Origin: an uncultured archaeon | GTDB lineage: Archaea > Asgardarchaeota > Baldrarchaeia > Baldrarchaeales > DXJG01 | Assembly (NCBI GenBank): GCA_964476035.1 | Contig: CAYYZD010000002.1 | Span: 1-30,596, forward strand | Direction: 5' to 3' | DNA: 30,596 nt | Part shown: positions 1-17,000 of the stretch, piece by piece | Numbering within the stretch: position 1 is the first letter of the stretch | How the letters are laid out: each line of letters starts with the position of its first letter | Notes under the pieces: generated by a model | Told to the model about the DNA's origin: nothing | The model's database searches: none | Seen by the model: only the letters and a program-made list of their open reading frames with translations | Program-made: the position numbers and the translations under genes

Positions 1-1302
1 ATGCAAATTCCACAAGTTTGCAAACCGTTCCCTAATGTACTGTACTACACCTTCCACACTTTCTAAACTTGCATTGCAAGTTAATGAAAGTTCTCCTCCC
101 ACCCTGACTCTTGGGTGATAAACGTTTTCCCTGCCCTTCCTTTCCTTATGCAAATATCCCTTTGCCACCAAACCTTCCAGTTTTTCATAGACTGTCCTCC
201 GTGAATAGCCAAGAAAACTTCCTACAAGGTCAAGTACTTCATTTACAGTTACTCCTCCATCTTGCCCGTCGCACACGTTTTCAACCGTTTTCAGAATGAA
301 CTTCTCTTCTTCGGTTAAATCGAATATCGTCCTCTCAATAGCCCTACTCCCCAACCTCAACGCAATGTACAAGTCTGTTAGGTCGGCTTCATCTCTCTTA
401 TCTTCTGGCTTCTGAAAATACCTACATATTGCGACGATTTTTATCAGTTCACATAGCTTGTCGGGGTCTCTTCGGGATTCGCTTCTATCAGTATTGAACA
501 AGTCGATTAACCTCTCAGCGTAAGGGATTTTCGGATCAACGTTCACTTCTTCAACAAGAATCTTAAATGCAGTTCTCCAAACCTTTAGTTCCTCACTGTC
601 GGGTGATAAAACACTCCTTTTTCCTTCATGTAATCGTAACTTCTCCAGCATTATTTTCTTGGTTAATTCTGGACTGCTTGAAGTTTCTAACCTCCACATT
701 CCACTTTTCAGTGACGGGGAAATGTTCATGACATTCGTAGTGGTAATGATCCCCTTGATTGGCATGTATACTGTCTCAGTAGTCATCCTTTGACTTCTCT
801 AATCCATATATGCATACTCTGAAATTATTCCCCCATCGTCCGCCCTATGTAACCTTAAAGTCCTGCCTATTTCTCCCTGCATCCTTTCAATGTCGGGAAC
901 ATAGAGTAGATCCACGTCTCTTAGGTTTTGAGAGTATCTAAGACTCGCTGGAGTGATGTAACCTCTTTCAATGTACTTTACTGCTTCTCGGAGTAGATCT
1001 AAACTTAGTCTGACCATAGTATCCTTTCCCGTGCCACTTTCACCAACTAACTGGATTAATCCCGTATAGCCTTTTTTTACCCCTAGTATTAGCAACGGTA
1101 GCAGTCTCTTGTTTTGTTCTTCTCCCAAAACAAATCTTGGTCTGTTTATTCTTTGGAGAACCCATCCTTTTTCGAGCAATTTGCCTAGTTCGTAGAAAAA
1201 CATGGGGGATTTAAGCAGTTCCAGTGCTTTTTTACGGATTCTATTTTCTTCCTCTTCTTCACTTCTTATAATGTGCCCCAACCGTCGATAACTTTGACTC
1301 AA
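1..1302 (-). pseudogene. P-loop (AAA+/MCM-like) ATPase, putative replicative helicase of the element, with C-terminal winged helix; 3'-truncated by the window edge; one in-frame TAG at 799-801 (pseudogene, read-through or sequence error)
   Basis: TTG start at 1302 with upstream GGAG(G). Walker A GESGTGKD. Manual translation past the TAG stays open for 266 codons to position 1: ...SEYAYMD*RSQRMTTETVYMPIKGIITTTNVMNISPSLKSGMWRLETSSSPELTKKIMLEK...GVTVNEVLDLVGSFLGYSRRTVYEKLEGLVAKGYLHKERKGRENVYHP... The ORF track shows only the first 167 aa. Confidence 0.75.
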
Positions 1303-1305
1303 CTT

Positions 1306-1527
1306 TTATCCCTCCACCGTGTTCCAAATACTATCTAGGTCTCTCCCGAGTGCAGTGATTTGTTCTTCCTTCTTTTTGGGTTCAATGTAGGGGTTTCTGT
1401 TCATCCAGGCACGGATTATAGCGCGGACGAATTCGCTTCTATTGGCGTAACCAAGTTTCTTGCGAAGATTTTCCAACTGGTCATACATCTCCCTGCTGAG
1501 CGAAATGGTGAGTGTAGTGATTTTCAC
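1306..1527 (-). CDS. Ribbon-helix-helix (CopG/NikR N-terminal-like) transcriptional regulator
   Basis: Beta strand TTLTISL followed by helix-turn-helix with NRSEFVRAII; GAGGTGA RBS upstream of the GTG; stop 3 nt before the ATPase start. Confidence 0.85.
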   Translation of the reverse strand: MKITTLTISLSREMYDQLENLRKKLGYANRSEFVRAIIRAWMNRNPYIEPKKKEEQITALGRDLDSIWNTVEG

Positions 1528-1675
1528 ACTACATCACCTCTATTAGCTGTATTCCATTTGAAAATTATTTTTAAAAGCGTTTATAAAATTATTGTTGTTG
1601 TCATACAATGAGCAGGATGGTTGATGATATATATGTTCGTTTAAACAAAAATATATATCTTGGAGGAAAGTTGAG
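1528..1675. promoter_or_regulatory. Divergent AT-rich promoter region between the two RHH genes
   Basis: AT-rich with TATA-like TTTATAAA and ATATATAT runs; imperfect palindrome TTGTCATACAA near 1597-1607; RBS on both sides. Confidence 0.5.
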
Positions 1676-2134
1676 ATGAGTCGAATCATAACATTCAGAT
1701 TGGAGGAAAAAACGAGAGAAAAATTGGAAAGCCTTTGCAAGAGTCTAGGGCTAACCATATCTGATTTTGTTCGACAGGCAGTCATGAGAGAACTGATGAG
1801 AGAAAGCATAGATTTCAATACGGTTCTCACTGAACTTCTGGTTAGAAACCAGCTAGATACTATATTTTTAGCGAAGCTTTTTGTACAGCAGGACACTGCA
1901 ATTAGGAAAATATTTACAATCCTGAATCGATTGCTGAAACAAATCGACGGAGAACAGTACAAGAGGCAAATGAAGGAAATAGATGAACGGGCAAAGAAAC
2001 TCGACGAAGAACTGACTGAAGAGTTAGACAAGTGGAAAACTGTTCTTTTCTACCTCGCAAATAGGGACTTTAAAGGGCTCAAGGACTATCTTGAGCGTCT
2101 AAGATATCCATTAAGAAGACATGGAGGAAATTGA
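1676..2134 (+). CDS. RHH DNA-binding protein with C-terminal helical/coiled-coil region
   Basis: MSRIITFRLEEKTREKLESLCKSLGLTISDFVRQAV fits the RHH pattern; GGAGG RBS. Confidence 0.8.
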   Translation: MSRIITFRLEEKTREKLESLCKSLGLTISDFVRQAVMRELMRESIDFNTVLTELLVRNQLDTIFLAKLFVQQDTAIRKIFTILNRLLKQIDGEQYKRQMKEIDERAKKLDEELTEELDKWKTVLFYLANRDFKGLKDYLERLRYPLRRHGGN

Positions 2135-2135
2135 C

Positions 2136-3158
2136 ATGGTTTCTAGTCTTCAACAACTCCCACAACAACGTCAACGTCATCATCGAGAGGTAGGGGACGA
2201 TAATAATATCGTAGTCGATCGACGTGACAACAGCGTTGATGACAGCGTCGATGTCTCCGATGTTGATAGACCAGAGTCCCAGTCCCAGCGATATGTCTGT
2301 CCCCACTGTGGAAAGAAATTTGACAGTGAAATGGCACTTGAGATGCATTCAATTAGAGTACATAAACGATCTGCAAAACCAAAAGAAACCAAGAAAGAAG
2401 TCAAGGTAACGAAGGTTCCCCCAATCCGCGAGGAAGGGGAAGCTTTAGTTCCAGACGCCGAGACGCAACTGAAGAATTTTCTAATAACCTTCGGCTTATC
2501 TGAGAGGGATGCGAATGCAACAATTGAATTTCTGAGAGCGTATGGTTTGGATAATTTAGAAAAGCTTAACGAAGCACTAACAGATTTAGGTGTCAGTCTT
2601 TCACGGAGGAAAATCATAATTGAAAGTTGGAGCAACCTTCGAAATATCAAAATTCCACCATCTTTGATGCAGAAGTTGGGGATAAGGCCGGTTATGCGTG
2701 AACAAGTTGAATACGGCTACTACGAATATCCGCAACCACAGAGAAGGACTAATGTTTCTGAAACTGCCGAATTGATACGCGCATTGGCAGAATATCAGAA
2801 AAGTATGAAGGAAAATGTTAATTCCTCCAATGACAACATGTTTTTACTCCAGCAAATACAGGAGTTGAGGCAGCAAAACGAACAGCTGCGTAAAGAACTT
2901 GAGGAACGGGAGAGGAAACGTGAACTTGAGGAAATAAGAAGGGAAATTTTAGATCTTAAAAACTCAACTATTAGGGTGCATAATCAATATACCGTGATTT
3001 CCGACGCAATCCGCGAATTGACTGGACTAATTAGGGAGTATTTTAATTTAGCACGAAGTCTCATTACGGGGAGGATTCGTCCCGAACTTGAAGAGAGCGA
3101 ATCTTCACGCTCATCTGTTTACAAATCTCTTCCCGAAGAACTTGTAGTGGAGGAATGA
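2136..3158 (+). CDS. C2H2 zinc-finger protein with acidic low-complexity N-terminus and C-terminal coiled coil (track start 2121; ATG 2136 preferred)
   Basis: YVCPHCGKKFDSEMALEMHSIRVH = C-x2-C-x12-H-x4-H; GGAGG at 2123-2127 precedes ATG 2136; E/R/Q-rich heptads. Confidence 0.8.
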   Translation: MVSSLQQLPQQRQRHHREVGDDNNIVVDRRDNSVDDSVDVSDVDRPESQSQRYVCPHCGKKFDSEMALEMHSIRVHKRSAKPKETKKEVKVTKVPPIREEGEALVPDAETQLKNFLITFGLSERDANATIEFLRAYGLDNLEKLNEALTDLGVSLSRRKIIIESWSNLRNIKIPPSLMQKLGIRPVMREQVEYGYYEYPQPQRRTNVSETAELIRALAEYQKSMKENVNSSNDNMFLLQQIQELRQQNEQLRKELEERERKRELEEIRREILDLKNSTIRVHNQYTVISDAIRELTGLIREYFNLARSLITGRIRPELEESESSRSSVYKSLPEELVVEE

Positions 3159-3517
3159 AAATGGAAGAGGTGAGAAGGTCTCTTATTGAAACGAGGAAGG
3201 TACTTGAAGATTTGAGAGAAGCACTCGGCATTCCTGTACTCAGAAGGAGATTTAGGGAAATGACGCCACAACTCTCTCCGTCTGTGGAAACACCGACACA
3301 GAAGACGGAGAGAGTGGTAGTGGAGCAACCGACGGAGGAAAGACAAGAAATTGTTGAGAGACCAGTGCAAATACTCAACTTTCCTATACGTAATGCAATT
3401 GCTGGTTTCATCCAATCTTTAGGTGAAGTAGCCAAAAAGAGAGTTGAGATCGAGGAGAAAAGGGTTGAACAGGCTCAGGAAAAAGAGAAATTTGAGTATA
3501 GATCCCTGAGGGGGTGA
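3155..3517 (+). CDS. Hypothetical protein, charged/coiled-coil
   Basis: ATGA overlap with the upstream stop, GGAGG RBS, 120 aa. Confidence 0.7.
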   Translation: MKMEEVRRSLIETRKVLEDLREALGIPVLRRRFREMTPQLSPSVETPTQKTERVVVEQPTEERQEIVERPVQILNFPIRNAIAGFIQSLGEVAKKRVEIEEKRVEQAQEKEKFEYRSLRG

Positions 3518-3523
3518 AGACGG

Positions 3524-3730
3524 ATGAATATTGATTGGAGGACAGTTCTTGAAGTTGGATTGATGGTTGTCACGACTATATTCGCTACACAATGGGGGAA
3601 ACTAAAAGAAAAATTCCACGATTTCAGGAAATTAATAGACACGCTTGATGACGCCGTAGCAGATGATAGGGTAACGAGAGAAGAACTCAAACAAATAATT
3701 CAGCGCATAAAAGAGTTGCTAAGGTGGTGA
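3524..3730 (+). CDS. Small membrane protein (one N-terminal hydrophobic helix plus amphipathic tail)
   Basis: TVLEVGLMVVTTIFATQW hydrophobic segment; GGTGA RBS. Confidence 0.7.
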   Translation: MNIDWRTVLEVGLMVVTTIFATQWGKLKEKFHDFRKLIDTLDDAVADDRVTREELKQIIQRIKELLRW

Positions 3731-3732
3731 AC

Positions 3733-3873
3733 ATGGAGGAAATTAAAAAGCCTGTCTTTTTCATTCTTGAGAGAGTGCATTCAGCATGGATACAGTTGAG
3801 GGAAGTATTTTGGAAGCGAGTGGAGGCTCGAGTGAAAAATGCTGCAGCGAGGATGCGGGAATTTCTACAGTAA
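3733..3873 (+). CDS. 46-aa hypothetical protein not in the ORF track (MEEIKKPVFFILERVHSAWIQLREVFWKRVEARVKNAAARMREFLQ)
   Basis: Manual translation; GGTGA RBS directly upstream; fills the gap between 3730 and the Alba gene exactly. Confidence 0.6.
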   Translation: MEEIKKPVFFILERVHSAWIQLREVFWKRVEARVKNAAARMREFLQ

Positions 3874-3874
3874 C

Positions 3875-4114
3875 TTGGTTGTGATCGGAAAGAAACCGTT
3901 ACGTAACTATATTTATGCTGTCCTTGAAAGACTGAGTCGAAGTGGTAAGGCAGTTGTCGCAGCGAAGGGAAATTTAATCGGGAAGGCATGTACCGTTGTG
4001 GAATTTATAAGGCAAAGGTACCCGCAAGTACGGGTTGAAAGGATTTTCCTTGACTCCGAAAACTACGAGAACCGCGTAATCCCTAGATTGCGAATTATTT
4101 TGCTACGCAGTTAA
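3875..4114 (+). CDS. Divergent Alba-family nucleic-acid-binding (chromatin) protein (track start 3839; TTG 3875 or GTG 3881 more likely)
   Basis: VVIGKKPLRNYIYAVL...VVAAKGNLIGKACTVVEFIRQRY matches the Alba consensus VxIGKKPvmNYVlAvl...ikARGraIskAVdvvEivrnrF. Confidence 0.8.
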   Translation: MVVIGKKPLRNYIYAVLERLSRSGKAVVAAKGNLIGKACTVVEFIRQRYPQVRVERIFLDSENYENRVIPRLRIILLRS

Positions 4115-4287
4115 AACTGCACGCACTTAAACCCGTTAGATGATGATTTTTTGATGTTCCGCATGCATTTAAACCGTTTTTTATCGGAGGTATTCACGCA
4201 AAACACGGAGGAAAATGGTTTAACACATTAAATTTCAATTGTGTAATTCTGGTAACATGATCATGGTCGGGTTTTAAGGTTTTTGTC

Positions 4288-4584
4288 GTGTGTTTTGAGG
4301 TAAGGGTAAGATTGTACATAAACTTTACACTGATTGGAGCATCAGAAGTAACAAGAAATTCGATGAGTTATTTGAAGAATACAAACTTCACATTTACCGA
4401 GTCATGGCTTTATAATAGCTATGAGACGTGGGTACAAGGGTCTGTGTGGAGGTTCCGTTTACCAACGGCTTACGATGCCTATTTCATCACCATACCTGCT
4501 GGAACCCATGTCTACTACATAGACTTCCAATTAAATACGCAATGCACAAGCTTGGAATATGCTGTGTGGTTCCAAAATGAATGA
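4288..4584 (+). CDS. Hypothetical aromatic-rich beta-strand protein, possibly the remnant of a gene starting at ATG 4215
   Basis: 98-aa ORF with protein-like composition but no RBS at 4288; GGAGG+ATG at 4215 is immediately followed by a stop. Confidence 0.35.
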   Translation: MCFEVRVRLYINFTLIGASEVTRNSMSYLKNTNFTFTESWLYNSYETWVQGSVWRFRLPTAYDAYFITIPAGTHVYYIDFQLNTQCTSLEYAVWFQNE

Positions 4585-4985
4585 ACCACTCCTATTTTAT
4601 TTTGTTGTGTTGGGTAAAACCATCGATTGCTGAGTATTTTTGTCGGTTCCAATTAGCAAGAATAGGGTATGCTTTACAAACGCAAAGAATGAATGAGTGT
4701 TTTCCTGCTTTTTTACTCGTTTCAAAGGTTTCTGGATGTCGTTTCGACATGCTCAGGGATGACTGAATTTTACTCGTTTTATCTATGTGCAACATGGCAG
4801 AATCAGCAATTTTTATACACTGCGGCGAGATTAATATATATGGGTGTGCAGGTTTGCTGATTGCAATTGAGAGAAAAGCCCATTCCTGTCGTCTCTTGCG
4901 GAAAGAAGAAAGGATATTCCGAGTCTAATTGTAATGTTTTGGTCACTACAAAATTATATGATTTTAGTATTGTGGTCGTGATTGC

Positions 4986-6195: not shown

Positions 6196-6830
6196 ATCTT
6201 AAGAGAGAAGTGGTTTTACATGTTAAAAGCGATCGTGAAGCGATGGAAGTATTAAGAGCAATACGTAAACATTTACGACCATTTAACGCCTATGTTCGCT
6301 ACGAAAAGGGAAAGATTCGCCTTACAATTTACGGTTCAAAGGATCACGTTAGGATTGCCTTAAACGAGATCAAGAGTATTTACAGGAAAATTAAAAATGC
6401 CCTATATAAGAATAAGGATGGTATGTACCAGTATGATGCTTCTCTTATTGCTGAAAAGAGTCAGGTAACTGTCTCTATTAAGGATTTGGGGAAAATCTTG
6501 GAGTTAAAGGGTTATAAAGGCAATGTTCAAGACACCCTACTTAGGACAGATGTTGAGCTTGAAGAAGTAATAAATCTTGCTCGCAAGTACCGAAAATTGA
6601 TCGACGAAATACAGGATGTTGGACCGAAAATTATAAGAAAGATCTTGTGCATGGCAACGATTATAACTGGTATGGACCATAAAAATCTCCTTAAAGTGGC
6701 TATTTCAAAGGGTCTAATTAAATATTTAGGTAACAACCGGTACGGATTGGTTGCCACACCAGATGAAACATGTAAAAAACTTATAAAGGAGGCTCTTAGT
6801 GGTGAAAATAAAAATTTTAGAAATAAGTGA
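6192..6830 (+). CDS. DUF2067-like conserved archaeal protein
   Basis: Position between csl4 and rpoL, length and general sequence character; ATGA coupling. Confidence 0.6.
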   Translation: MNLKREVVLHVKSDREAMEVLRAIRKHLRPFNAYVRYEKGKIRLTIYGSKDHVRIALNEIKSIYRKIKNALYKNKDGMYQYDASLIAEKSQVTVSIKDLGKILELKGYKGNVQDTLLRTDVELEEVINLARKYRKLIDEIQDVGPKIIRKILCMATIITGMDHKNLLKVAISKGLIKYLGNNRYGLVATPDETCKKLIKEALSGENKNFRNK

Positions 6831-7092
6831 TAAGGAGTTGGAATTTGAGTTAGAAGGTGAGGGTCACACTCTATGTAATTTGCTTAGAAAGGTTTTGCTT
6901 GAAGATGAAGACGTCACCTTTGCTGGTTATAGAATTGAACATCCACTTATCGGCAAACCTAAGATGTATGTCAGGACGAATGGAAAGAAAGATCCCCTTG
7001 ATGCTGTTATTGAAGCTGCTAAAAAAATTAAGGAAATGGCTGAAGGTTTTCGTGAAGCTTTTCTTAGATCATTAAAAGGGATCACATCATGA
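6799..7092 (+). CDS. rpoL: DNA-directed RNA polymerase subunit L (Rpo11)
   Basis: EGEGHTLCNLL...FAGYRIEHPL signature. Confidence 0.95.
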   Translation: MVKIKILEISDKELEFELEGEGHTLCNLLRKVLLEDEDVTFAGYRIEHPLIGKPKMYVRTNGKKDPLDAVIEAAKKIKEMAEGFREAFLRSLKGITS

Positions 7093-7574
7093 ATAATATG
7101 AACGATATAAGACAAATCATATGCAATGCAATTTTTTCTAGGGTCTCTTACAAGTCTTTGAGGGAAATTGCGCAGGATAAAGGGTTAGCTAAGCTTGGAG
7201 ATGCACTTGTAAATTTCATATATTCACTCGCTAAATCTCTTATCTTGGGGAAGTTGGATGCTTGGAAAGTTTCGGACGCTGTGTTGTCTCAAGCTTTAGA
7301 AAACGCATCTTTGCTCAAACTCTTACCTAAAAGAAGTGATAAACATAGTAGAGGAGACGCGGTTGAGGCGCTTTTAGCTTATGCATGGATCATGGGTATC
7401 TTTGATATTAAAAACGCAGTTATGCTTTTGAAAGATGAGATGAAGCGAGATGATTTTAGTAATAAAAGCTTAGAGAAAATTGCTGCAGTTAGAGCCTTTA
7501 AAAAGCTTCTTGAGGAGATAAAACCTAAAATTGAAACGTTTTTGATTATGCGAAAAGTTAAAAAGGAATTATAA
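7089..7574 (+). CDS. Archaeal ribonuclease III-like family protein
   Basis: DKGLAKLGDALVNFIYSLA and GDAVEALLAYAW motifs. Confidence 0.75.
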   Translation: MNNMNDIRQIICNAIFSRVSYKSLREIAQDKGLAKLGDALVNFIYSLAKSLILGKLDAWKVSDAVLSQALENASLLKLLPKRSDKHSRGDAVEALLAYAWIMGIFDIKNAVMLLKDEMKRDDFSNKSLEKIAAVRAFKKLLEEIKPKIETFLIMRKVKKEL

Positions 7575-7616
7575 TGCGTTTTAACGATGTACATTCATCT
7601 TTTTGGAGGAGATCTT

Positions 7617-7955
7617 ATGGAGTTTTGTCCCAAGTGTGGTGCCTTGCTAATGCCAGATGTGGATGAGGAAGGAAAAACTGTTCTTCGTTGCAAATCTTGC
7701 GGGTACGTCAAAAAAGTAGATAAGAGCGAGATAGAAGGCGAATATCGCATTGCTCATCACATAGCCCATGGGCCTCGTGATGAAATGGTTGTTGTGAAAG
7801 AAGAAGTTAGAACTTTGCCTATTGCTCGGGTAAAATGTCCGAAATGCAGTAATGACCGTGCTTACTATTGGCAACTTCAGACCAGAAGGGCTGATGAAGC
7901 TATGACCACTTTTTATAAATGTACTAAATGTGGACATACATGGAGGAGATATTAG
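7617..7955 (+). CDS. tfs: Transcription factor S (TFIIS-like transcript cleavage factor) (track start 7587; ATG 7617 has a GGAGGA RBS)
   Basis: MEFCPKCG...CKSC and CPKC...QTRRADE...FYKCTKCGHTW; acidic DE hairpin intact. Confidence 0.93.
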   Translation: MEFCPKCGALLMPDVDEEGKTVLRCKSCGYVKKVDKSEIEGEYRIAHHIAHGPRDEMVVVKEEVRTLPIARVKCPKCSNDRAYYWQLQTRRADEAMTTFYKCTKCGHTWRRY

Positions 7956-7967
7956 TAGGGATATAAC

Positions 7968-8168
7968 ATGCTAATTTATGAGATTGAAGCTCTATATAGA
8001 ATCCTAAGAAAAACTGTGAAGATTTTGGAGGAAGGCTATGAGCGTATTCCTAGTAGGTTTAATGCTAAGAACTATGTCTTTCGTTCTTTGCAAAATTTAA
8101 AAAGCGCAGAGAAAATTGCTACAAATATTTGGAGGAAAATATTTGAGCAGGAGAATTCCAGCTGTTAA
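7968..8168 (+). CDS. Small hypothetical protein (66 aa)
   Basis: Fills the gap between tfs and the RPA14-like gene; amphipathic helical character. Confidence 0.55.
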   Translation: MLIYEIEALYRILRKTVKILEEGYERIPSRFNAKNYVFRSLQNLKSAEKIATNIWRKIFEQENSSC

Positions 8169-8481
8169 TAGGAGGATAAGTGAGATAAAGCTTGAAGATA
8201 GGCGTGTTAGAATAGTTGGTATGGTGGTAGAGTCTAGACCTGGTATGTGTATTCTGGATGATGGCAGTGGTAGTGTTAAAGTTCGAACATCCCATAAATT
8301 ACATGCTGGAAAGTTAATAAGGGTGATAGGGCAAGTTTCTATAAGAACAGATGGCGAGATTGAAATAGATGCCGAATTACTTCAGGATATGGATAAATTA
8401 AAATTTGATCTTTATAAAGAAGTATATAGTTTGAAAAAGAAGTTTAAAAATGTTCAAGCTAAACATTTAGAGGAGGGATAA
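8143..8481 (+). CDS. Single OB-fold protein, RPA14/RPA3-like subunit of replication protein A (track start 8116; TTG 8143 has a GGAGGA RBS)
   Basis: RRIPAVNRRISEI...RVRIVG.V...LDDGSG...GKLIRVIG...IDAELLQD resembles Thermococcales RPA14 as I recall it. Confidence 0.75.
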   Translation: MSRRIPAVNRRISEIKLEDRRVRIVGMVVESRPGMCILDDGSGSVKVRTSHKLHAGKLIRVIGQVSIRTDGEIEIDAELLQDMDKLKFDLYKEVYSLKKKFKNVQAKHLEEG

Positions 8482-8484
8482 ATT

Positions 8485-9237
8485 GTGTTTAGGGCAGTAC
8501 TTTCAGATGCAAAAACTTGGACCTACATAGTTGATGCATTGTCAACTCTCGTTGACGAAGCAAATTTTGTTGCTAAGCCAGATGGGCTAAGTATGAGAGC
8601 TATGGATCCATCGCATGTTGCTATGGTGGATTTTGCATTACCGAGCGATGCATTTGATGAATATGAATGTGATCAAGAAACTCTGCTAGGCGTAAATCTT
8701 GATGAAATGAAGAAAGTTATGAGGAGGGCGAGGAGCGGAGATACTTTGGAAATGATCTACGAAGAAGTAGAAAAAAGACTTAAACTAAAATTAAGAGGGA
8801 AAACCGTAAGAACTTTCAGTATTCACTTACTTGACATTACTGCTGAAGAATTACCTGAACCGTCCGTGGAATTTAAAGCGTTCGCTATTGTTACAGCTGA
8901 TGCTCTACAAGAAGCTGTAAAAGATGCTGCAGTTACTAGTGATCACGTGAAAATTACAATTCAACCCGATAAGGTAACCTTTAGGGCTGTAGGCGATCTT
9001 GGAGAAGTTGTAGTAGAAATGGGCAAAGATTCTGAAGCGCTTCTTGACGTTCAAACCTCAGAAGAAGCTTCTGCAACATACACTCTAAATTACCTTGCTG
9101 ATATGATGAAGGTCGCAAAAGCTGCTGATACTGTAAAACTTCAACTTTCTACGGATATGCCTCTTCGGATGGATTTTAACCTTCCTGGTGGAGGTAGGGT
9201 AAGCTACTTCTTAGCTCCAAGAATCGAAGGCGAATAG
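8485..9237 (+). CDS. pcn: DNA polymerase sliding clamp PCNA
   Basis: AMDPSHVAMV, LGVNL..MKK, YFLAPRIE motifs; 250 aa. Confidence 0.97.
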   Translation: MFRAVLSDAKTWTYIVDALSTLVDEANFVAKPDGLSMRAMDPSHVAMVDFALPSDAFDEYECDQETLLGVNLDEMKKVMRRARSGDTLEMIYEEVEKRLKLKLRGKTVRTFSIHLLDITAEELPEPSVEFKAFAIVTADALQEAVKDAAVTSDHVKITIQPDKVTFRAVGDLGEVVVEMGKDSEALLDVQTSEEASATYTLNYLADMMKVAKAADTVKLQLSTDMPLRMDFNLPGGGRVSYFLAPRIEGE

Positions 9238-9286
9238 TTCTTAGGAAAGTTTTAAAATTGAAACCATTTATTTCATTTGATGTAGT

Positions 9287-10345
9287 ATGTTGACTAAAGA
9301 AGATTTAGCTAAGTACCCAAGTATTGAACTTGCACGGGAATATGTTAAACAATTTAATATTGATGTTGCGACTTTAGCTGATGAACTTCCAGGTGTTGCA
9401 AATAGAGCATATCAAATACTTAAAGATATTATTACGAGAGGAATTTACACTTATGTTTCCAGCGATGTTGAAACCGAAATTTTGGCATTCCCTGTTGTTA
9501 GACTTTTTATAGATGTTATTGGTGATGAATGGCTTAGACGTCGATTTGCTGTTGCTTTTTCGAAGAGAGTTGGTCGATTTTTGCAGGGAGAAAGCAATGA
9601 TAAAATATTGGAAATTGCGAAAACGCCCGGTAACGTAAGTGAGAGTGGTTGGGATTTGATATATGAGGTAAAGAGGATAGGTATTAAGTATTATGAATGG
9701 AAGCTACATTTCAAAGATTACCTAAGTGTCGCGGTTCATTTTCACGACATAGCATGGAAAATGTGTAATCATCCGGTTGCAAATGGTTATGTTAGATTAA
9801 CTAAACGTGAACTAGCTAGATTAATGGCAGAAGCCTTTAAAGAAAGAGTATTAGAAAGAAAGATTCCGAAAAGATTCATAGAGCTACCGGAAAAAATGAT
9901 GTCAATTATTAGGAAAATAGAAGAGTTAGTTAGAGAGTATAAGAAGGAAGTTATAAGAGAGGTTCCAATAAGAGTTGAAGTGTCAGGGGGTATTTACCCT
10001 CCATGTGTACAGTTTATTCTTGAGCGAACCGAAAAGGGGGAAAATCTGAGCCATGTAGAGAGATTATTTCTTATGTTTTTTATGTTAAATATCGGGAAAG
10101 GGGAAGAAGAAATCGTGAATTTGTTTCGAAAGATGCCAGATTTCAGTGAAGAAAGGACAAGATACTATGTTAGACATGCCAGAAACAAGGGTTATACAGC
10201 TCATAATTGTGATACATTAAAAACCTATGGGATTTGTAGACCTGCACATAGGTGGTGTTCTGAAGGGAAAATCAAAAATCCGCTTATATTTTATAACAGA
10301 ATGTTGTATGCCCGTGGAAAGAGGCGTAGTGAAAGTGAAGAATGA
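9287..10345 (+). CDS. priL: DNA primase large subunit PriL with C-terminal [4Fe-4S] domain
   Basis: YPPCVQ, GENLSHVER, F...PDF.EERTRY, NC..LK..GIC...C...KNPL.FY (four Cys). Confidence 0.92.
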   Translation: MLTKEDLAKYPSIELAREYVKQFNIDVATLADELPGVANRAYQILKDIITRGIYTYVSSDVETEILAFPVVRLFIDVIGDEWLRRRFAVAFSKRVGRFLQGESNDKILEIAKTPGNVSESGWDLIYEVKRIGIKYYEWKLHFKDYLSVAVHFHDIAWKMCNHPVANGYVRLTKRELARLMAEAFKERVLERKIPKRFIELPEKMMSIIRKIEELVREYKKEVIREVPIRVEVSGGIYPPCVQFILERTEKGENLSHVERLFLMFFMLNIGKGEEEIVNLFRKMPDFSEERTRYYVRHARNKGYTAHNCDTLKTYGICRPAHRWCSEGKIKNPLIFYNRMLYARGKRRSESEE

Positions 10346-11585
10346 AGCCAAAACGATCTTACTTTTGAAAAGTCTCTTTGGGGCTTATTACAGAGAGAAC
10401 GACATACCGCCACCTCCTCAATTTAGTAAAAGGGAGTTCGGTTTTATGCTCTGGGATAAAGAAGGAATGATCAGACATAAAACCTTCTATAACAGAACGG
10501 AGTTTCTAGCCTTTCTCAGAAAAAATGCGCCGAAAAATGCTTACAGATCTGCAGCCTATTATTTAGATCCTGAAGCTCAAAGCATGGAAGGGAAGGGTTG
10601 GGTAGGTGCTGACCTGATATTTGACATTGATGCTGATCATCTGATCACATCTTGCAAAGAAGTTCACGATAGATGGATATGCATAGATTGTGGAATCAGA
10701 GGTACGGGGAAAAAACCTGCCCAATGTCCAAGTTGTAAATCAACAAGAATTGATGAAGTGTCATGGATATGTGATCAATGTCTTAATTCCGCGAAAGAAG
10801 AGGTTTTTAAACTTTTAGATTTTCTCTTCGACGATTTTGGCGTTTCAGAAAAGGAAGTTAAGGTTGTATATTCTGGACACCGTGGTTATCATGTGCACGT
10901 AGATAATGAGACCGTAAGGGAATTAAGTAGCGATGGGCGACGAGAAATTATTAATTATATAACTGGAACTGGGATAAAAGTAGAGAATTTAGGTTTAATT
11001 GAAGTCTCTGCTGATGGACGTAAATTTCTCATCGGTCCCGATTTGACCAGTGAAGGTTGGGGGAAACGTTTAGTTAAATCCATAATCAGAATGTTTTCAA
11101 GCTCTGATCTAGAAGATACCTTAAGAAGTATTAGTATACCGGAGAGAAAAATCAAAATATTGTTGGCTAATAGGGAAAGACTTGTAGACGCATTAAGTTC
11201 AACTCCCTCAAAATGGGATTTTTTACATGGTATAGGTATTTCTATTTGGGAAAAAATCGCTTTAGCGGCCATAAAAAGAATGGCTGCTCAAGTGGACGAG
11301 CCTGTGAGCGTAGATGTTCATAGACTTATTAGACTTGAATATAGTTTACATGGTTCAACTGGTTTTAAAGTAACTCCGATTTCGGTTACAGATTTAGAAC
11401 GCTTTGATCCATTTAAAGATGCAATTGTTTTTAAAGGTGAAAAGGAAGTAATTTTTAGGGAATATTGTCCAGAGTTTAGAATAGGGGATGAACTTTTTGG
11501 ACCCTATCAACAGGGGGAAAAAGTAGAATTACCCCTTCCTGCCGTTGTGTTTACGCTTGCTAAAGATGTTGCGGAGCTACCATAA
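10329..11585 (+). CDS. priS: DNA primase small (catalytic) subunit PriS (track start 10227; GTG 10329 or 10335 more likely)
   Basis: REFGF, FDIDAD catalytic motif, YSGHRGYHVHV, DVHRLIRLEYSLHGSTG. Confidence 0.95.
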   Translation: MKVKNEAKTILLLKSLFGAYYRENDIPPPPQFSKREFGFMLWDKEGMIRHKTFYNRTEFLAFLRKNAPKNAYRSAAYYLDPEAQSMEGKGWVGADLIFDIDADHLITSCKEVHDRWICIDCGIRGTGKKPAQCPSCKSTRIDEVSWICDQCLNSAKEEVFKLLDFLFDDFGVSEKEVKVVYSGHRGYHVHVDNETVRELSSDGRREIINYITGTGIKVENLGLIEVSADGRKFLIGPDLTSEGWGKRLVKSIIRMFSSSDLEDTLRSISIPERKIKILLANRERLVDALSSTPSKWDFLHGIGISIWEKIALAAIKRMAAQVDEPVSVDVHRLIRLEYSLHGSTGFKVTPISVTDLERFDPFKDAIVFKGEKEVIFREYCPEFRIGDELFGPYQQGEKVELPLPAVVFTLAKDVAELP

Positions 11586-12170
11586 ATGGATTACGAAAAG
11601 CTGTTCTCGATATGGCTTAAAGAAAATGAGGAGGAAGAGTTGCAAGACCTACCTCCGGACTTTTATAGAGAAGTAAGTAGATACATCAGCGAGCTTAAAG
11701 CAGGACTAAATTATGAGAATTTAAATAGTATTGAATTGAAAGTCATTGAATTAGAATTAGAAAACATACAGTTCATCATTAAAGACTTGTGCAGTTTACG
11801 CTTAGAAAAAATTCTAAGAAATATCTTAAAGAGAAAAGAACAATTCGAAAGTAAGTTGAATCCAGACGAAAAGAAATTTTTTAACCCCTTAATGGATGCT
11901 TTAAGGAATTTTTATTCATTTATCTCTCGTACTCTTGAAGGGAAAGCTCTTGAAATAAAAGAAACTATAAGAGAGAGCAAAATAAAAACATTAGAAAGCG
12001 AAAGAGTTGCCGTGAGAATTCTTGAAAATCTGCCAGCTATTGTTGGAACTGATATGAAAGTATATGGACCTTTCAAGAAGGGAGATATTGTGGTGTTACC
12101 GAGGAAAAACTCTGAAACCCTAATAAGGAAAAAAATGGCTAAAATTATAGACGTGCGTATTATTACGTAA
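11586..12170 (+). CDS. gins51: GINS complex subunit Gins51 (Gins15)
   Basis: LQDLPPDFY, R..KI A-domain, C-terminal B-domain IVG.DMKVYGPFKKGDIV.LP; directly follows priS. Confidence 0.88.
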   Translation: MDYEKLFSIWLKENEEEELQDLPPDFYREVSRYISELKAGLNYENLNSIELKVIELELENIQFIIKDLCSLRLEKILRNILKRKEQFESKLNPDEKKFFNPLMDALRNFYSFISRTLEGKALEIKETIRESKIKTLESERVAVRILENLPAIVGTDMKVYGPFKKGDIVVLPRKNSETLIRKKMAKIIDVRIIT

Positions 12171-12291
12171 AGGGGATAACTTTATAGGTACCATGTTTTT
12201 GATTTCCTTACCTTAGGCAGTTAATGGGATAAGGTTAAAAGGGGAAACTCGCTGTGAAGTATGTAACTTTTAGGTACATGAGGCGATTTAA

Positions 12292-12567
12292 ATGAAGGTT
12301 CCAAAGCAAATAAGAACATACTGTCCGAAATGTAACACGTACACTATTCACTCGGTGTCACTCTACAAGAAGGGAGCTGAGAGAGAATTATCCCAAGGTC
12401 GAAGAAGGTATGAAAGAAAGAAAAAGGGATATGGCTCGCAACCAAAACCAGTGCAGAAAAAATTGGTTAAATCGACTAAGAAACAAACATTAAAGCTCAA
12501 GTGCAGGGAATGCGGGTATATTATTCATAAAAAGGGAATTAGAATTAAAGGCATAGAACTTGTTTAA
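12292..12567 (+). CDS. rpl44e: 50S ribosomal protein L44e
   Basis: RTYCPKC..YTIHSV, GYGSQPKP, KSTKK..LKLKCRECG. Confidence 0.96.
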   Translation: MKVPKQIRTYCPKCNTYTIHSVSLYKKGAERELSQGRRRYERKKKGYGSQPKPVQKKLVKSTKKQTLKLKCRECGYIIHKKGIRIKGIELV

Positions 12568-12668
12568 TTTTATATAAATGTACATAAATCCTCTTTGCCA
12601 TCGATATTTCATAAATTTTAAATAAGAAGTTTCAAGTTTAAAGACTGTTGTAGGATGGAGGACCGTAT

Positions 12669-12866
12669 ATGGGGCGAAAAAATTTATTGATCCCAGAACC
12701 AAGGTCGAGGTTTGTTAAAGTCTCATGTCCAGATTGCGGTAATGAACAGGTCATATTTGGCTGTGCAAGTACCAAAGTTCGATGTTTAGTTTGCAATCGT
12801 ATACTTGCGGTACCCAGTGGAGGTAAGGCAAAAATACAGGCTAAAATCATTAAAGTACTCGGATGA
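12669..12866 (+). CDS. rps27e: 30S ribosomal protein S27e
   Basis: [39 protein letters not shown]. Confidence 0.96.
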
Positions 12867-13069
12867 TAAAAGAAATTTAAATTGTAATTTAGCTTTTCCC
12901 TTTACCTAAAAGTAACATATATAGCCACGTTAGCTCCTACATTTTAAAACTGAATTATTGATTTAAGTTGATAACGTTTTTAGCTGCCAGAATCATCTCA
13001 ACATTTTTAAATACTTTTTATAAACGTTGTATCGTTCCCTTAAGGATACCCATATTGGAGGAAGTACTT

Positions 13070-13873
13070 ATGGTTAGGAAAAGACAAGAATGGCCTGAAG
13101 TCGGCGATATAGTAATTGGAACCGTAATTCGTATCGAGCACTATGGAGCTTACGTTAGACTAGACGAATACAACGGTAAAGAAGGCTTCATTCACATTAG
13201 TGAAATCTCGAGCACTTGGGTGCGTAATATCAGAGATTATGTACGAGAAAAGCAAAAAGTGGTTGCTAAAGTTCTAAGAGTAGATAAAACTAGAGGTCAT
13301 ATAGATTTATCCTTAAGGCGAGTAACGGACCAATGGAAGAGACAAAAAATCTCTGAGTGGAAACGAGCTCAAAAAGCTGAAAATCTACTTTTATTAGCAG
13401 CTGAGAAGCTAGGGAAAACTCTTGATGAGGCTTATGAAGAAGCAGGGTGGAAAATGGAGGATGCATTCGGCGAAATATATGCAGGATTTGAAGCTGCATT
13501 GGAAGAAGGACAGGACGCGCTTTTAAAAGCCGGTGTAGATGAAAAATGGGCAAAGGTATTAACTGAATTGGCAAAAATGTACGTGGAGATACCAAAAGTA
13601 AAGATCTCAGGCATACTCACGTTAAGATGTATGAAGCCGAATGGAGTTGAAACAATTAAAAAAACTCTAAAGGAAGCCATGAAAGCTGGTGAAAATATAA
13701 GAAACGGGGTAAAAGTTGATATATATTTAGCTGGAACTCCAAGATGGAGGGTAGAGGTAGAAGCAAAGGACTGGGAAACTGCAGAGGAAGTATTAAAGAA
13801 AGTGATAGATACTGCACTTACTGTAATTAAAGAGGAAGGAGGAGAAGGCGAATTTAAAAGAGAACCTAGGTGA
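13070..13873 (+). CDS. eif2a: Translation initiation factor aIF2 alpha subunit (track start 12968; ATG 13070 has a GGAGG RBS)
   Basis: EWPEVGDIVIGTV, LDEY..KEGFIHISEI.S.WVRNIRD, GHIDLSLRRV. Confidence 0.96.
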   Translation: MVRKRQEWPEVGDIVIGTVIRIEHYGAYVRLDEYNGKEGFIHISEISSTWVRNIRDYVREKQKVVAKVLRVDKTRGHIDLSLRRVTDQWKRQKISEWKRAQKAENLLLLAAEKLGKTLDEAYEEAGWKMEDAFGEIYAGFEAALEEGQDALLKAGVDEKWAKVLTELAKMYVEIPKVKISGILTLRCMKPNGVETIKKTLKEAMKAGENIRNGVKVDIYLAGTPRWRVEVEAKDWETAEEVLKKVIDTALTVIKEEGGEGEFKREPR

Positions 13874-14067
13874 AAACTTTGGGAAAGCTTTTACGTAAAT
13901 GTCAAAAATGCGGAAATTACACGCTAAAACAAGATAAATGCCCGTATTGTGGCGGGCCACTTAAGTCCCCTTATCCGCCTAAATTCTCTCCTCTTGACCC
14001 ATACGGTGAATATAGAAGAAAGCTAAAACGTGAATTAATAAAATATGGGGAAACAAGCAAAAATTGA
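13870..14067 (+). CDS. nop10: H/ACA RNP protein Nop10
   Basis: LRKCQKCGNYTLK..CPYCGG....PYPPKFSP.DPYGEYRRK. Confidence 0.95.
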   Translation: MKTLGKLLRKCQKCGNYTLKQDKCPYCGGPLKSPYPPKFSPLDPYGEYRRKLKRELIKYGETSKN

Positions 14068-14076
14068 GATATAGTT

Positions 14077-17000
14077 TTAATCCAGAACTATAACCCTGGT
14101 TTCTAAGGTATACCCCTTTGCAAAATTAATTGTTATAATTATTATTTTACTACCTATTACCGACGTACAATTGAATACTTTTAGTGTAGTTGAGTTCCCC
14201 GGATATATAATGGTCGACCCATTAAATTCGCAAACTGTACCGTTAATTTTAATTGTTGATATTTCTAGCTGCTCTATGCCAAGGTTTGTAACATTTATAA
14301 TCACTGTTCCATTTGTAAATGCTTTAGCACTAATATTGGCAAAAGGTACCACCGCGACCTTTGTTACTGAAGTTTTGTTCGACCACCGCGGTACAAAGCT
14401 GAAATTGTAATACACTGTAACATTCACTATCTGTGAAACGTTAAGAACAAGACCTGTACTCACCTTTAGTACAGCAGTTTCACCACTACTTAGCGTGGAA
14501 CTTCCACTAACTGTCTCAAAACTGTAAAGAGTTCCATTAACGGCAATGTTACTGATATTCAGCGGCAAATCCATGGGATTAGCAACTGTTATGGTTACGA
14601 CTCCGTTAGTATATGCTGTTGCACTCTTGACGTGAAGAATAAGTGATGGAGTTGGAGCAACGCTGACATTTGCGGTGGTTGTTAATGTTCTGTTTGGGGC
14701 ACCTACTGGATGATAAGTTACGTTTACTGCCACCGTTAGTCCCTTTAGTTTTGAAGTTTCGTTGAAACCTAGGTCTATTACAAAAACCGATTCCTCTTGC
14801 GGGAAAATCGCTAATGAACCATTAAATATATTAAAAACAGTCTCTGTTGAGTTTATTTTAATAGAATCAACTGTAACTGGATAGCCTCCAATATTTTTAA
14901 CCCGAATAAAGCCTATACCGTTATCATAAACTATAGACCTTGTTTCATCGATATCAAGAGATATCTGAGGAGTTTCAAGAATATTGGCGTTTACGGATTT
15001 ATAAATTCTGTAGCCAGGATACTCCGGAACATCTGCTATAACTTTAATTGATACATTATCACCAATAAACCATTTTTTTCCAGTATTAACGAAAAGATCG
15101 ATTGCTTCTTTTGGTTTTAGTGTTTGTTCGTCACCTATAATCTCAAAGCTATATGTTTTACCATCTATATAAACCTTTGAGAGAGAAATTTCATGAATGC
15201 CTGTATTATTGACTTTTATAATAAACAGTCCATTAGCATACGGATTAACCTCTACTATTTCCATCCTTGCTTCCAATATGCTATAGTTCACCTCGTATAT
15301 CTTAACAAATCGGTTACTCGAAAAGTAAGCTGGCTTAAATATTTTCTCGAAAAGCGTCCAGTGTCCCGGATCGACAATTAAAGTTAAGTATCCGTAGGGA
15401 TCCGAGCGGTAAAACAGGTACTTGTCAGCCAAATTATTTCTTTGTATGAAATCTATCAAGTATCCGCAATACCTACTACTACGATCAGGTTCCCCGTAGA
15501 AAAGCATTTTATAGATTGTAGAGTTAAGTAGTGTTCCAGTTGGATTGGTGATTTCTCCGTAAAGACTTTCATTTATTAGCTCTGGGAAATGGTCCTCCGC
15601 GATTCTAACCATCCATGGCCACTTAAACTCGTCACCACCAAGTCCTTGGTAGCAGTATCCGAAAAAGACAAGCACATGCGTTACGTTGTATCGTTTGTAG
15701 ATCTTTACCGCTTCTGTTTCATTTAGCGCAAATGCTGCCCCCATCCATGCGATTTGTGTACTGTTAAGGGTTGCATTGTCAACCAGTGTTGTTTTGTTGG
15801 CCACGGTGTTTATCCAATATCCATAGTCCCACCAAGAAGCTACTATCGCATCTTCTGGTAGATTATATCGCATCCACATAAGAGTTTCTTGCCAATCTGG
15901 CTCCCCGTTAGGTAACATTTCTACCCCGGCCATGTATTTTGACGAAACATAGGCCCCATAATATGTTGTTATGATAAGTAATGATGCGATGAAAATTAGA
16001 GTTATAATCGTATATTCTGTGCCGACAATACCTGAAATCCTCGCTCTTTTCCGTCTTGCCAAAGGCATACCTTCACGTATTTCTGTCAAGACGCCTACAA
16101 ATGGAGAGAGGATTTGATCGATGGCATATGCTGAAAGAAGACAGACTACTGGCGAAAGTATTAATACTAATCTTATCATTGATCCAGCAAAGTATGTGGC
16201 CGTTAACCCCAGAACTATAAGAAAGATGTCTTCATTTCTTAAACGTTTAAACGAAAAATATATTCCAAGTGGATATATAAACAAGAGAATGTGTAGATTG
16301 AAGTAGAATTCAGACCATGAAGTGGCTGCATGCTCTGCTACTGAAGCTATTATACGCGCTTTTTCCCTATATAAAGGATTTAATACCGTCAAGAATTTTC
16401 CACTTATAGGCTTTATATATTTCTCCAGGATTTCAACAAAAGAAAATCCAGTATACCATGAATATGTAAAAACGAAAGATACCATTACAGCGAAGGTCAA
16501 AATTATGTACCCTAGAATTCTTCTTTGAATCTTAACCTCTATAATTCGTTTAGCTACTGATGAATTATACACCGTTGGAATTGCTTCATAAATAAATAAC
16601 AATATTAGCATAGCTAGGGCTGGAAGCAGATCAGTTTTAGTTAATATAGCTGGTCCGAGTCTTGGTACCCTTGTAGCTATAAGGAAACCAATGCTTATCG
16701 TTGTAGTATAAGATAAAAGAAGTGATCTGGAATATCTATGCGAAATGAGAAGTAAGAACGCATAAACAGCTAGTAAACCATACACATACACATATGCTCC
16801 CCATGATGCCGATAAATATCCAAGAACGAGCCCCGCAATAACCCCTGAAAGTATTGACTCCCTTTTTAATGATCTTATAAAGAAATATAGAGTCGCTATT
16901 ATTAGTAAAATGCCTATTGCTTCGTTGTCGTAAAAACCTGCAGTTGTACGTTGAACATATCCTGGTACAAATGCAAGGAAGAAAGCTGCAAGTAATCCCG

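Follow-up and report, generated by a model that had tools for sequence, protein, structure and literature searches.

The window, by which we mean the whole 30,596-nucleotide stretch analysed, corresponds to contig C2, bases 1 to 30,596, of a metagenome-assembled genome (MAG; 1.38 Mb, 161 contigs, 82% complete, 36.9% GC) and begins inside a mobile element whose replication gene, rep, is interrupted by an in-frame amber codon. The rep frame runs on the minus strand from a TTG start at 1302-1300 to TAG at 801-799, codon 168, and past the TAG a further 266 codons stay open to window base 1, where the contig, too, begins. The remainder of the gene is visible on a second contig, L018, which is 99.9% identical to window 1-1580 and then carries the rest of rep, an 82-aa ORF (orf82), the gene of a 422-aa tyrosine recombinase (PF00589, E 3.9e-12), and enolase; there, 392 codons after the TAG stay open up to the natural rep stop. 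The positions reported in the earlier note (TTG 1302, TAG 799-801, 266 open codons, and GGA 700-702), together with the motifs that it quoted, proved correct, the GGA at 702-700 being G201 of LKSGMW.

Joining the two contigs gives an element of roughly 7.1 kb (window 1 to ~4958 plus L018 1581 to ~3755), the features of which are collected in Table 1. The TAG and a downstream ATG, at 786, are separated by a gap of 12 nt, and the homologue alignment indicates that the Met encoded there, M173, is ancestral in the Rep family.

Table 1. Coordinates of rep, its motifs, and the other features of the element (window positions unless a contig is named)
Feature	Location	Strand	Remarks
Window part of the element	1..4958		Remainder (rep 3' end, orf82, 422-aa tyrosine recombinase) on L018
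rep, codons 1-434 of 560	1..1302	-	Cut by contig end; interrupted at codon 168
In-frame TAG, codon 168	799..801	-	CAG (Gln) in closest relatives
N-terminal 167-aa ORF	802..1302	-	Helical N-domain, Walker A, Walker B-like motif, first strand of pre-sensor-1 hairpin
Walker A GESGTGKD	1021-1044	-	Within N-terminal 167-aa ORF
Walker B-like LLYVPD	892-909	-	Within N-terminal 167-aa ORF
Predicted pre-sensor-1 beta-hairpin, residues 159-180	763..828	-	TAG in turn; strands 159-166 and 173-180
ATG (M173)	784..786	-	Five codons past TAG; start of 388-aa C-terminal ORF, separately annotated
Sensor-1 strand GIITTTN	733..753	-	N190 nearly invariant; downstream of TAG
SGMW motif	694..705	-	G201 invariant in family; MCM SRFD Arg-finger position by motif order
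Winged helix-turn-helix, Penicillinase_R/TrmB-like, AspA-like	103..261	-	Profile and PDB sequence searches
Ribbon-helix-helix (RHH; CopG) gene	1306..1527	-	Immediately upstream of rep
orf152, RHH/NikA-like	1676..2134	+	Intact in window
Alba-family protein of the element	3839-4114		PF01918, E 1.6e-7; also in L002 and L019 copies
Small ORFs	4288-4584, 4581-4766		No family match
Left junction core AAAATCA	4959..4965		Also in right junction, L018 3755-3761
Recombinase, 465 aa	L002 5215-6612
Recombinase, 422 aa	L018 2252-3520
Recombinase, 452 aa	L036 2415-3773

An integrated element built of exchangeable modules

The element sits between a methyltransferase-csl4 operon and enolase. Specifically, the host sequence begins again at about 4950-4971 and leads into the methyltransferase gene (4986) from its upstream side, and in three genomes of the same genus (G001-G003) the corresponding site is empty, with the methyltransferase gene and enolase as divergent neighbours ~100 nt apart; hence, the window copy is an integrated one. 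The flanks of the occupied site match the G001-G003 spacer at 84-92%, with an overlap of 22-25 nt between the two blast alignments, and the junctions share an exact core of at most 7 nt, AAAATCA. The TAG copy is thus integrated in the chromosome, in an intergenic spacer and not in a tRNA gene. Only the window and L018, among the TAG-bearing assemblies, extend into a flank, and together they show one chromosomal site; no second rep copy that could serve as a helper was found in the MAG. A search of the L002 and L019 copies for long direct repeats (at least 18 nt) that could act as att sites found none.

Defective integrated plasmids and proviruses are familiar in archaea, among them the TKV elements of Thermococcus kodakarensis and the pTN3-like and pT26-2-like elements. 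Like these, the element described here is small, was inserted by a tyrosine recombinase, brings its own replication ATPase along with RHH and winged-helix regulators, and is inherited with the chromosome, where individual copies carry inactivating mutations. It is unlike them in its Baldrarchaeia (Asgard) host, in its insertion into a promoter-rich intergenic spacer with a 7-nt core, where the others use a tRNA gene or a site inside the integrase gene, and in a Rep whose ATPase part belongs to no Pfam family.

Comparison with related copies revealed that the rep module, from the RHH gene through rep to orf82 and at least 98% identical in DNA, is joined to three tyrosine recombinases (Table 1) that are mutually 22-28% identical. 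The genes of the 465-aa and 422-aa integrases have only their last ~33 codons in common, which places a recombination joint within the integrase gene, at its 3' end. At the other extremity, window 4284-4958 is a variable cargo end, which the L002-type element does not match in DNA and resembles only weakly in protein (44% over 57 aa with L002 95-265). Further, a 63-kb contig, L019, holds a CAG-bearing element (6723-14963, rep 99.5% identical to that of the window) that adjoins small GTPase and proteasome genes, and identity between its host genes and those of the MAG (G000 C9:15334-19553, C26) reaches only about 81-83%, a pattern in the sequences that suggests recent horizontal spread of the element between species. 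The MAG counterpart of this L019-type site, at ~C9:15317-15346 (29 of 30 bases shared with L002 25-54), may be unoccupied.

These findings give the amber codon a context of modest value, namely, a small element that integrates in Baldrarchaeia and Bathyarchaeia-type archaea, for which the exact borders and an empty site are now defined and of which near-identical intact copies occur in hosts with flanking genes only ~81% identical and in company with three different integrases.

The fold of Rep and the place of the stop within it

Rep is an AAA+ ATPase of MCM-like type that also carries a winged helix, the ATPase being classified by fold search alone. In searches by sequence, the intact protein matched neither the Pfam MCM family nor any other ATPase family at E <= 0.01, and its split fragments gave only sub-threshold generic AAA matches (E <= 0.1). 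Likewise, for the ATPase domain, the PDB sequence search, PHROGs, and Pfam returned winged helices or weak generic AAA matches only; in Pfam, residues 348-400 match a winged helix (Penicillinase_R/TrmB), and the PDB sequence search found the winged helix only, as AspA-like. An AlphaFold2 model of the intact allele (pLDDT 78.8, pTM 0.70), submitted to Foldseek against the PDB, found eukaryotic MCM2-7 subunits and archaeal MCM as its best matches, followed by RuvB and RavA; the top 26 were MCM chains only (E down to 2.5e-9, probability 1.0, TM 0.3-0.4).

The model proceeds from a P-loop strand (82-86) through a Walker B strand (132-135) and a hairpin (159-166/173-180) to a sensor-1 strand (184-187), an order that puts residue 168 at the tip of the predicted pre-sensor-1 hairpin. 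Among 21 homologues, G87, T91, K93, and D94 of the Walker A motif GESGTGKD are invariant, N190 of the sensor-1 TTTN is nearly invariant, and Y134, P136, D137, S200, and G201 are invariant or nearly so. The unusual Walker B, LLYVPD, and the SGMW sequence, which had earlier been counted as signs of decay, are family-wide traits in these 21 homologues and are hence silent on decay.

The resemblance to MCM helicases (archaeal MCM, MCM2-7, and the MCMs of mobile elements) lies in the matching fold of the AAA+ core and C-terminal winged helix and in the shared order of Walker A, Walker B, pre-sensor-1 hairpin, and sensor-1 Asn. Rep departs from them in having no Pfam MCM match, a sequence identity of 10-16% at TM-scores of 0.3-0.4, no OB-fold or zinc N-terminal domain, a Walker B of the form YxPD, and, going by motif order, an invariant Gly at the position of the SRF arginine finger. 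If the motif order is a good guide, then the Rep family would have Gly where MCM has this finger. A trans-acting arginine might come instead from residues 276-278, an invariant SRR. Some Rep homologues carry an N-terminal PrimPol (PF09250) and PriCT_1 (PF08708) ahead of the same ATPase, an arrangement that identifies this as a family of replication proteins from mobile elements. Several homologues thereby resemble the PrimPol-helicases of the pRN1 ORF904 type, unlike which the window Rep has no PrimPol and its ATPase is MCM-like, not a superfamily 3 helicase. Rep can accordingly be described as a divergent MCM-like ATPase that has no existing family model.

Against this fold, truncation at codon 168 keeps the N-domain, Walker A, and Walker B and removes half of the hairpin, sensor 1, the conserved SRR(D)PDK motif, and both the lid and the winged helix.

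The TAG allele is derived

The TAG is present in five assemblies, specifically the window, L016 (JGI Ga0190363_1016616), L018 (GCA_054386355.1, JBQSHQ010000143.1), L033 (ENA ERZ27248349 k141_102122), and L035 (Logan SRR7051320_10993), which were produced by differing pipelines, with some of them possibly sharing raw data so that their full independence is unproven. Its N-terminal 167-aa and C-terminal 388-aa ORFs also appear as separate gene calls in other collections, while an exact 38-mer had no match in IMG/VR. All five copies carry one identical rep haplotype and divide into two genotypes at a patch farther along the element (1850-1939). A one-base difference on a metagenome-assembled contig is the sort of change that a sequencing or assembly artefact of the MAG could produce, and the earlier note had held sequencing error to be a serious candidate; this we now consider very improbable. 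The same T recurs in five assemblies from different pipelines (again, with the possibility of some shared raw data), it is found in two genotypes of the element, and it is always accompanied by the same five further differences in rep relative to the L002-type allele; the recurrence of the base across assemblies and genotypes makes a base-calling error very unlikely. The contigs themselves end close together, the window and L033 at window base 1, L035 at base 22, and L016 at base 29, that is, ~100-130 nt before a three-SNP cluster at rep nt 1403-1409, and these breaks would be explained by an assembly-graph branch arising from co-occurring variants.

A search of 5.8 billion proteins, with Rep translated through the stop as the query, recovered P0002, an uninterrupted protein of 560 aa with 99% identity and with Gln as residue 168. 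Seven assemblies (L002, L003/L004, L015, L017, L019, L036, L037, L038) yielded CAG-bearing rep DNA, in near-identical copies with rep DNA 99.3-99.6% identical and the 560-aa frame intact. Relative to the L002-type allele, the window rep differs at 6 of 1,302 bases, comprising three synonymous changes, two missense changes (E9G and M145I), and the change of Q168 to a stop, which amounts to a single C-to-T transition, CAG to TAG. In the alignment of 21 homologues, column 168 holds Q, P, K, T, E, S, N, or R; none of ten distant loci examined by tblastn, and thus independently of gene calling, has an in-frame stop, and a split gene or stop was seen in no other Rep family member checked. The variability of this column and the stop-free distant loci indicate that an in-frame amber is no feature of the family. 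Aligning homologous elements, the check that the earlier note had proposed, thus gives a clear result: near-identical copies have CAG, and the TAG allele is derived, not conserved.

The age of the lesion can be gauged from the remainder of the element. All of its other genes in the window, plus the integrase gene and orf82 on L018, are intact, and this, together with the frame that remains open past the TAG, implies that the lesion is very young. In two of the TAG copies (L016 and L033), orf152 has a one-base deletion in an A-run, a -1 frameshift that splits it into 54 and 82 aa; orf152 is intact in the CAG copies L015 and L037, which have the same version of a 90-nt patch within this gene. 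The patch, window 1850-1939, exists in two versions with ~33 differing positions between identical flanks, and several contigs terminate right at the patch boundary, L035 at window base 1849 being one. The patch has the appearance of a gene-conversion tract formed between elements that occur together. Within rep, the changes private to the TAG lineage (M145I, Q168 to stop, K462R, and T530K) all alter the protein, giving a non-synonymous to synonymous ratio of 4:0, versus 4:6 among the CAG haplotypes (Fisher p ~0.07, hand calculation). This is no more than suggestive of relaxed selection in the TAG lineage, since a divergence of 0.5% is too low to prove it.

Decoding of UAG and the fate of the interrupted gene

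The earlier note had proposed that replication of the element is gated by read-through of the amber codon, and programmed recoding of this kind, with UAG read as pyrrolysine (Pyl) or by a dedicated suppressor, has in its favour the 266 open codons beyond the TAG and the existence of some Asgard lineages with Pyl decoding (PMC9723677). The genomic evidence speaks against it from several directions. First, TAG is an everyday stop codon in this host, terminating 18% of the ORFs that reach 200 aa, and in these ORFs the next stop after TAG follows at a median of 11 codons, as it does after TAA and TGA. More than 100 open codons follow the stop in 16 of 152 ORFs ending in TAG versus 35 of 675 ending in TAA or TGA, so that long extensions are somewhat commoner after TAG. 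There are 21 other long open frames after TAG, of which the ten longest were read and represent adjacent, separate genes. Read-through of TAG across the host was consequently rejected as a candidate, given that the ten longest extensions are neighbouring genes that share a frame, as in the pairs SBDS-Rrp4, OppD-OppF, and CoA-transferase A-B.

Second, the element does not shun the codon. It had been pointed out that the element's genes in the window lack TAG stops and that six host genes there have them; both observations are borne out, with eight element ORFs in the window ending in TAA or TGA and six host genes ending in TAG. At 18% usage, the chance of finding no TAG among 8 ORFs is about 0.2, and the pattern breaks down outside the window, where TAG terminates rep itself at its natural stop and the genes of both the 465-aa and the 422-aa integrases. 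The element thus shows no TAG avoidance.

Third, the decoding machinery was not found. The search for pylS that the earlier note had called for found no PylS in the MAG (G000), in the three same-genus genomes, or in a genome of the same order (G004); the PylS_Cterm profile (TIGR02367), with a cut-off of 178 bits, scored no higher than 23.9 in G000 and 27.4 in G001-G004. Methanosarcina, where amber is decoded as pyrrolysine, was the control and passes this cut-off. No tRNA was detected in the window or at the element loci, the window had no Rfam match, and ARAGORN found no CUA anticodon in the 82%-complete genome, the window, or the element loci. ARAGORN reported 4 tRNAs in the 1.38-Mb MAG without its intron option and 14, mostly intron-containing, with it, and RF00005 reported about 9 in the whole MAG, with anticodons not given. 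At 82% completeness and with ~9 tRNAs, the missing suppressor tRNA is weak evidence; either the tRNA contigs went unbinned, or many of the tRNAs are interrupted or atypical. One ARAGORN call, a 'tRNA-Stop (tta)' with a 78-nt intron, would read UAA, not UAG, and was set aside as false.

Finally, no stimulatory RNA structure was found around the codon, the 151 nt surrounding the TAG folding with z = -0.66 and 45 of 200 shuffles folding as well. With seven near-identical copies and all distant homologues free of the TAG, a variable column at the site, no PylS in any of the five genomes, frequent TAG stops in the host, rep and integrase genes that themselves stop at TAG, no tRNA detected on the element, and no RNA structure, a recoding switch is extremely improbable, and its pyrrolysine form is close to refuted.

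We also regard as unlikely, if less so, that the allele is leaky or hypomorphic. This could come about by near-cognate read-through, where tRNA-Gln decoding UAG would, by analogy with other systems, restore exactly the wild-type Gln, or by reinitiation at ATG 786, where fragments of 167 and 388 aa would reassemble across the hairpin turn and yield low Rep activity. In yeast and E. coli, tRNA-Gln(CUG) can misread UAG through a G-U pair at the first codon position, and the leaky UAG of MuLV gag-pol is read with insertion of Gln; to our knowledge, near-cognate read-through has been measured in no Asgard archaeon. An ancestral CAG codon, a stop located in a surface hairpin turn and a variable column, an ancestral ATG 12 nt past the TAG with a frame open to the natural stop on L018, and the intactness of the remaining element genes in the window would all suit a leaky allele. 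Yet M173 is ancestral and not newly evolved, the RNA structure around the TAG is unremarkable (z = -0.66), no other family member is split or stop-bearing, two TAG copies have acquired the additional orf152 frameshift, and the TAG-haplotype flanks, in the two assemblies that show them, are both at one chromosomal site. Compared with established amber-decoding and leaky-UAG systems, rep has the same arrangement of a UAG followed by a long open frame, and its ancestral Gln is the residue that near-cognate suppression would insert. It is unlike them in the absence of PylS, the undepleted TAG usage, the unconserved stop, the lack of downstream structure, and the termination of rep itself by TAG. 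Were the allele leaky, an integrated Asgard element would be keeping a throttled capacity to replicate that its host tolerates.

Instead, the TAG probably reflects a true nonsense mutation of recent date in a copy of the element that the chromosome carries, and it represents ordinary pseudogenisation; the plain nonsense mutation that the earlier note kept as its fallback is the reading that the evidence supports. Under this model, a C-to-T transition would have turned Gln codon 168 (CAG) of rep into an amber codon in one lineage of the ~7.1-kb tyrosine-recombinase element, and termination there would leave a fragment of 167 residues. Deprived of sensor 1, the lid, and the winged helix, such a fragment would have lost, or nearly lost, replicative ATPase function, and the TAG copy would persist because the chromosome replicates it. 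We infer a loss of Rep function and the onset of decay, of which the orf152 frameshift in two TAG copies and the protein-altering rep changes of the TAG lineage would be signs.

Taken alone, the amber codon is of little importance, since nonsense mutations in mobile elements carried on a chromosome are ordinary decay. Of more use are the definition of the element's borders, the MCM-like Rep, and the shuffling of integrase modules. For a study of Rep, the intact 560-aa allele is the form to express. The 3' third of rep also contains a 29-nt inverted repeat (27 of 29 bases; window 64-92, L002 4674-4702), the arms of which lie ~200 nt apart.
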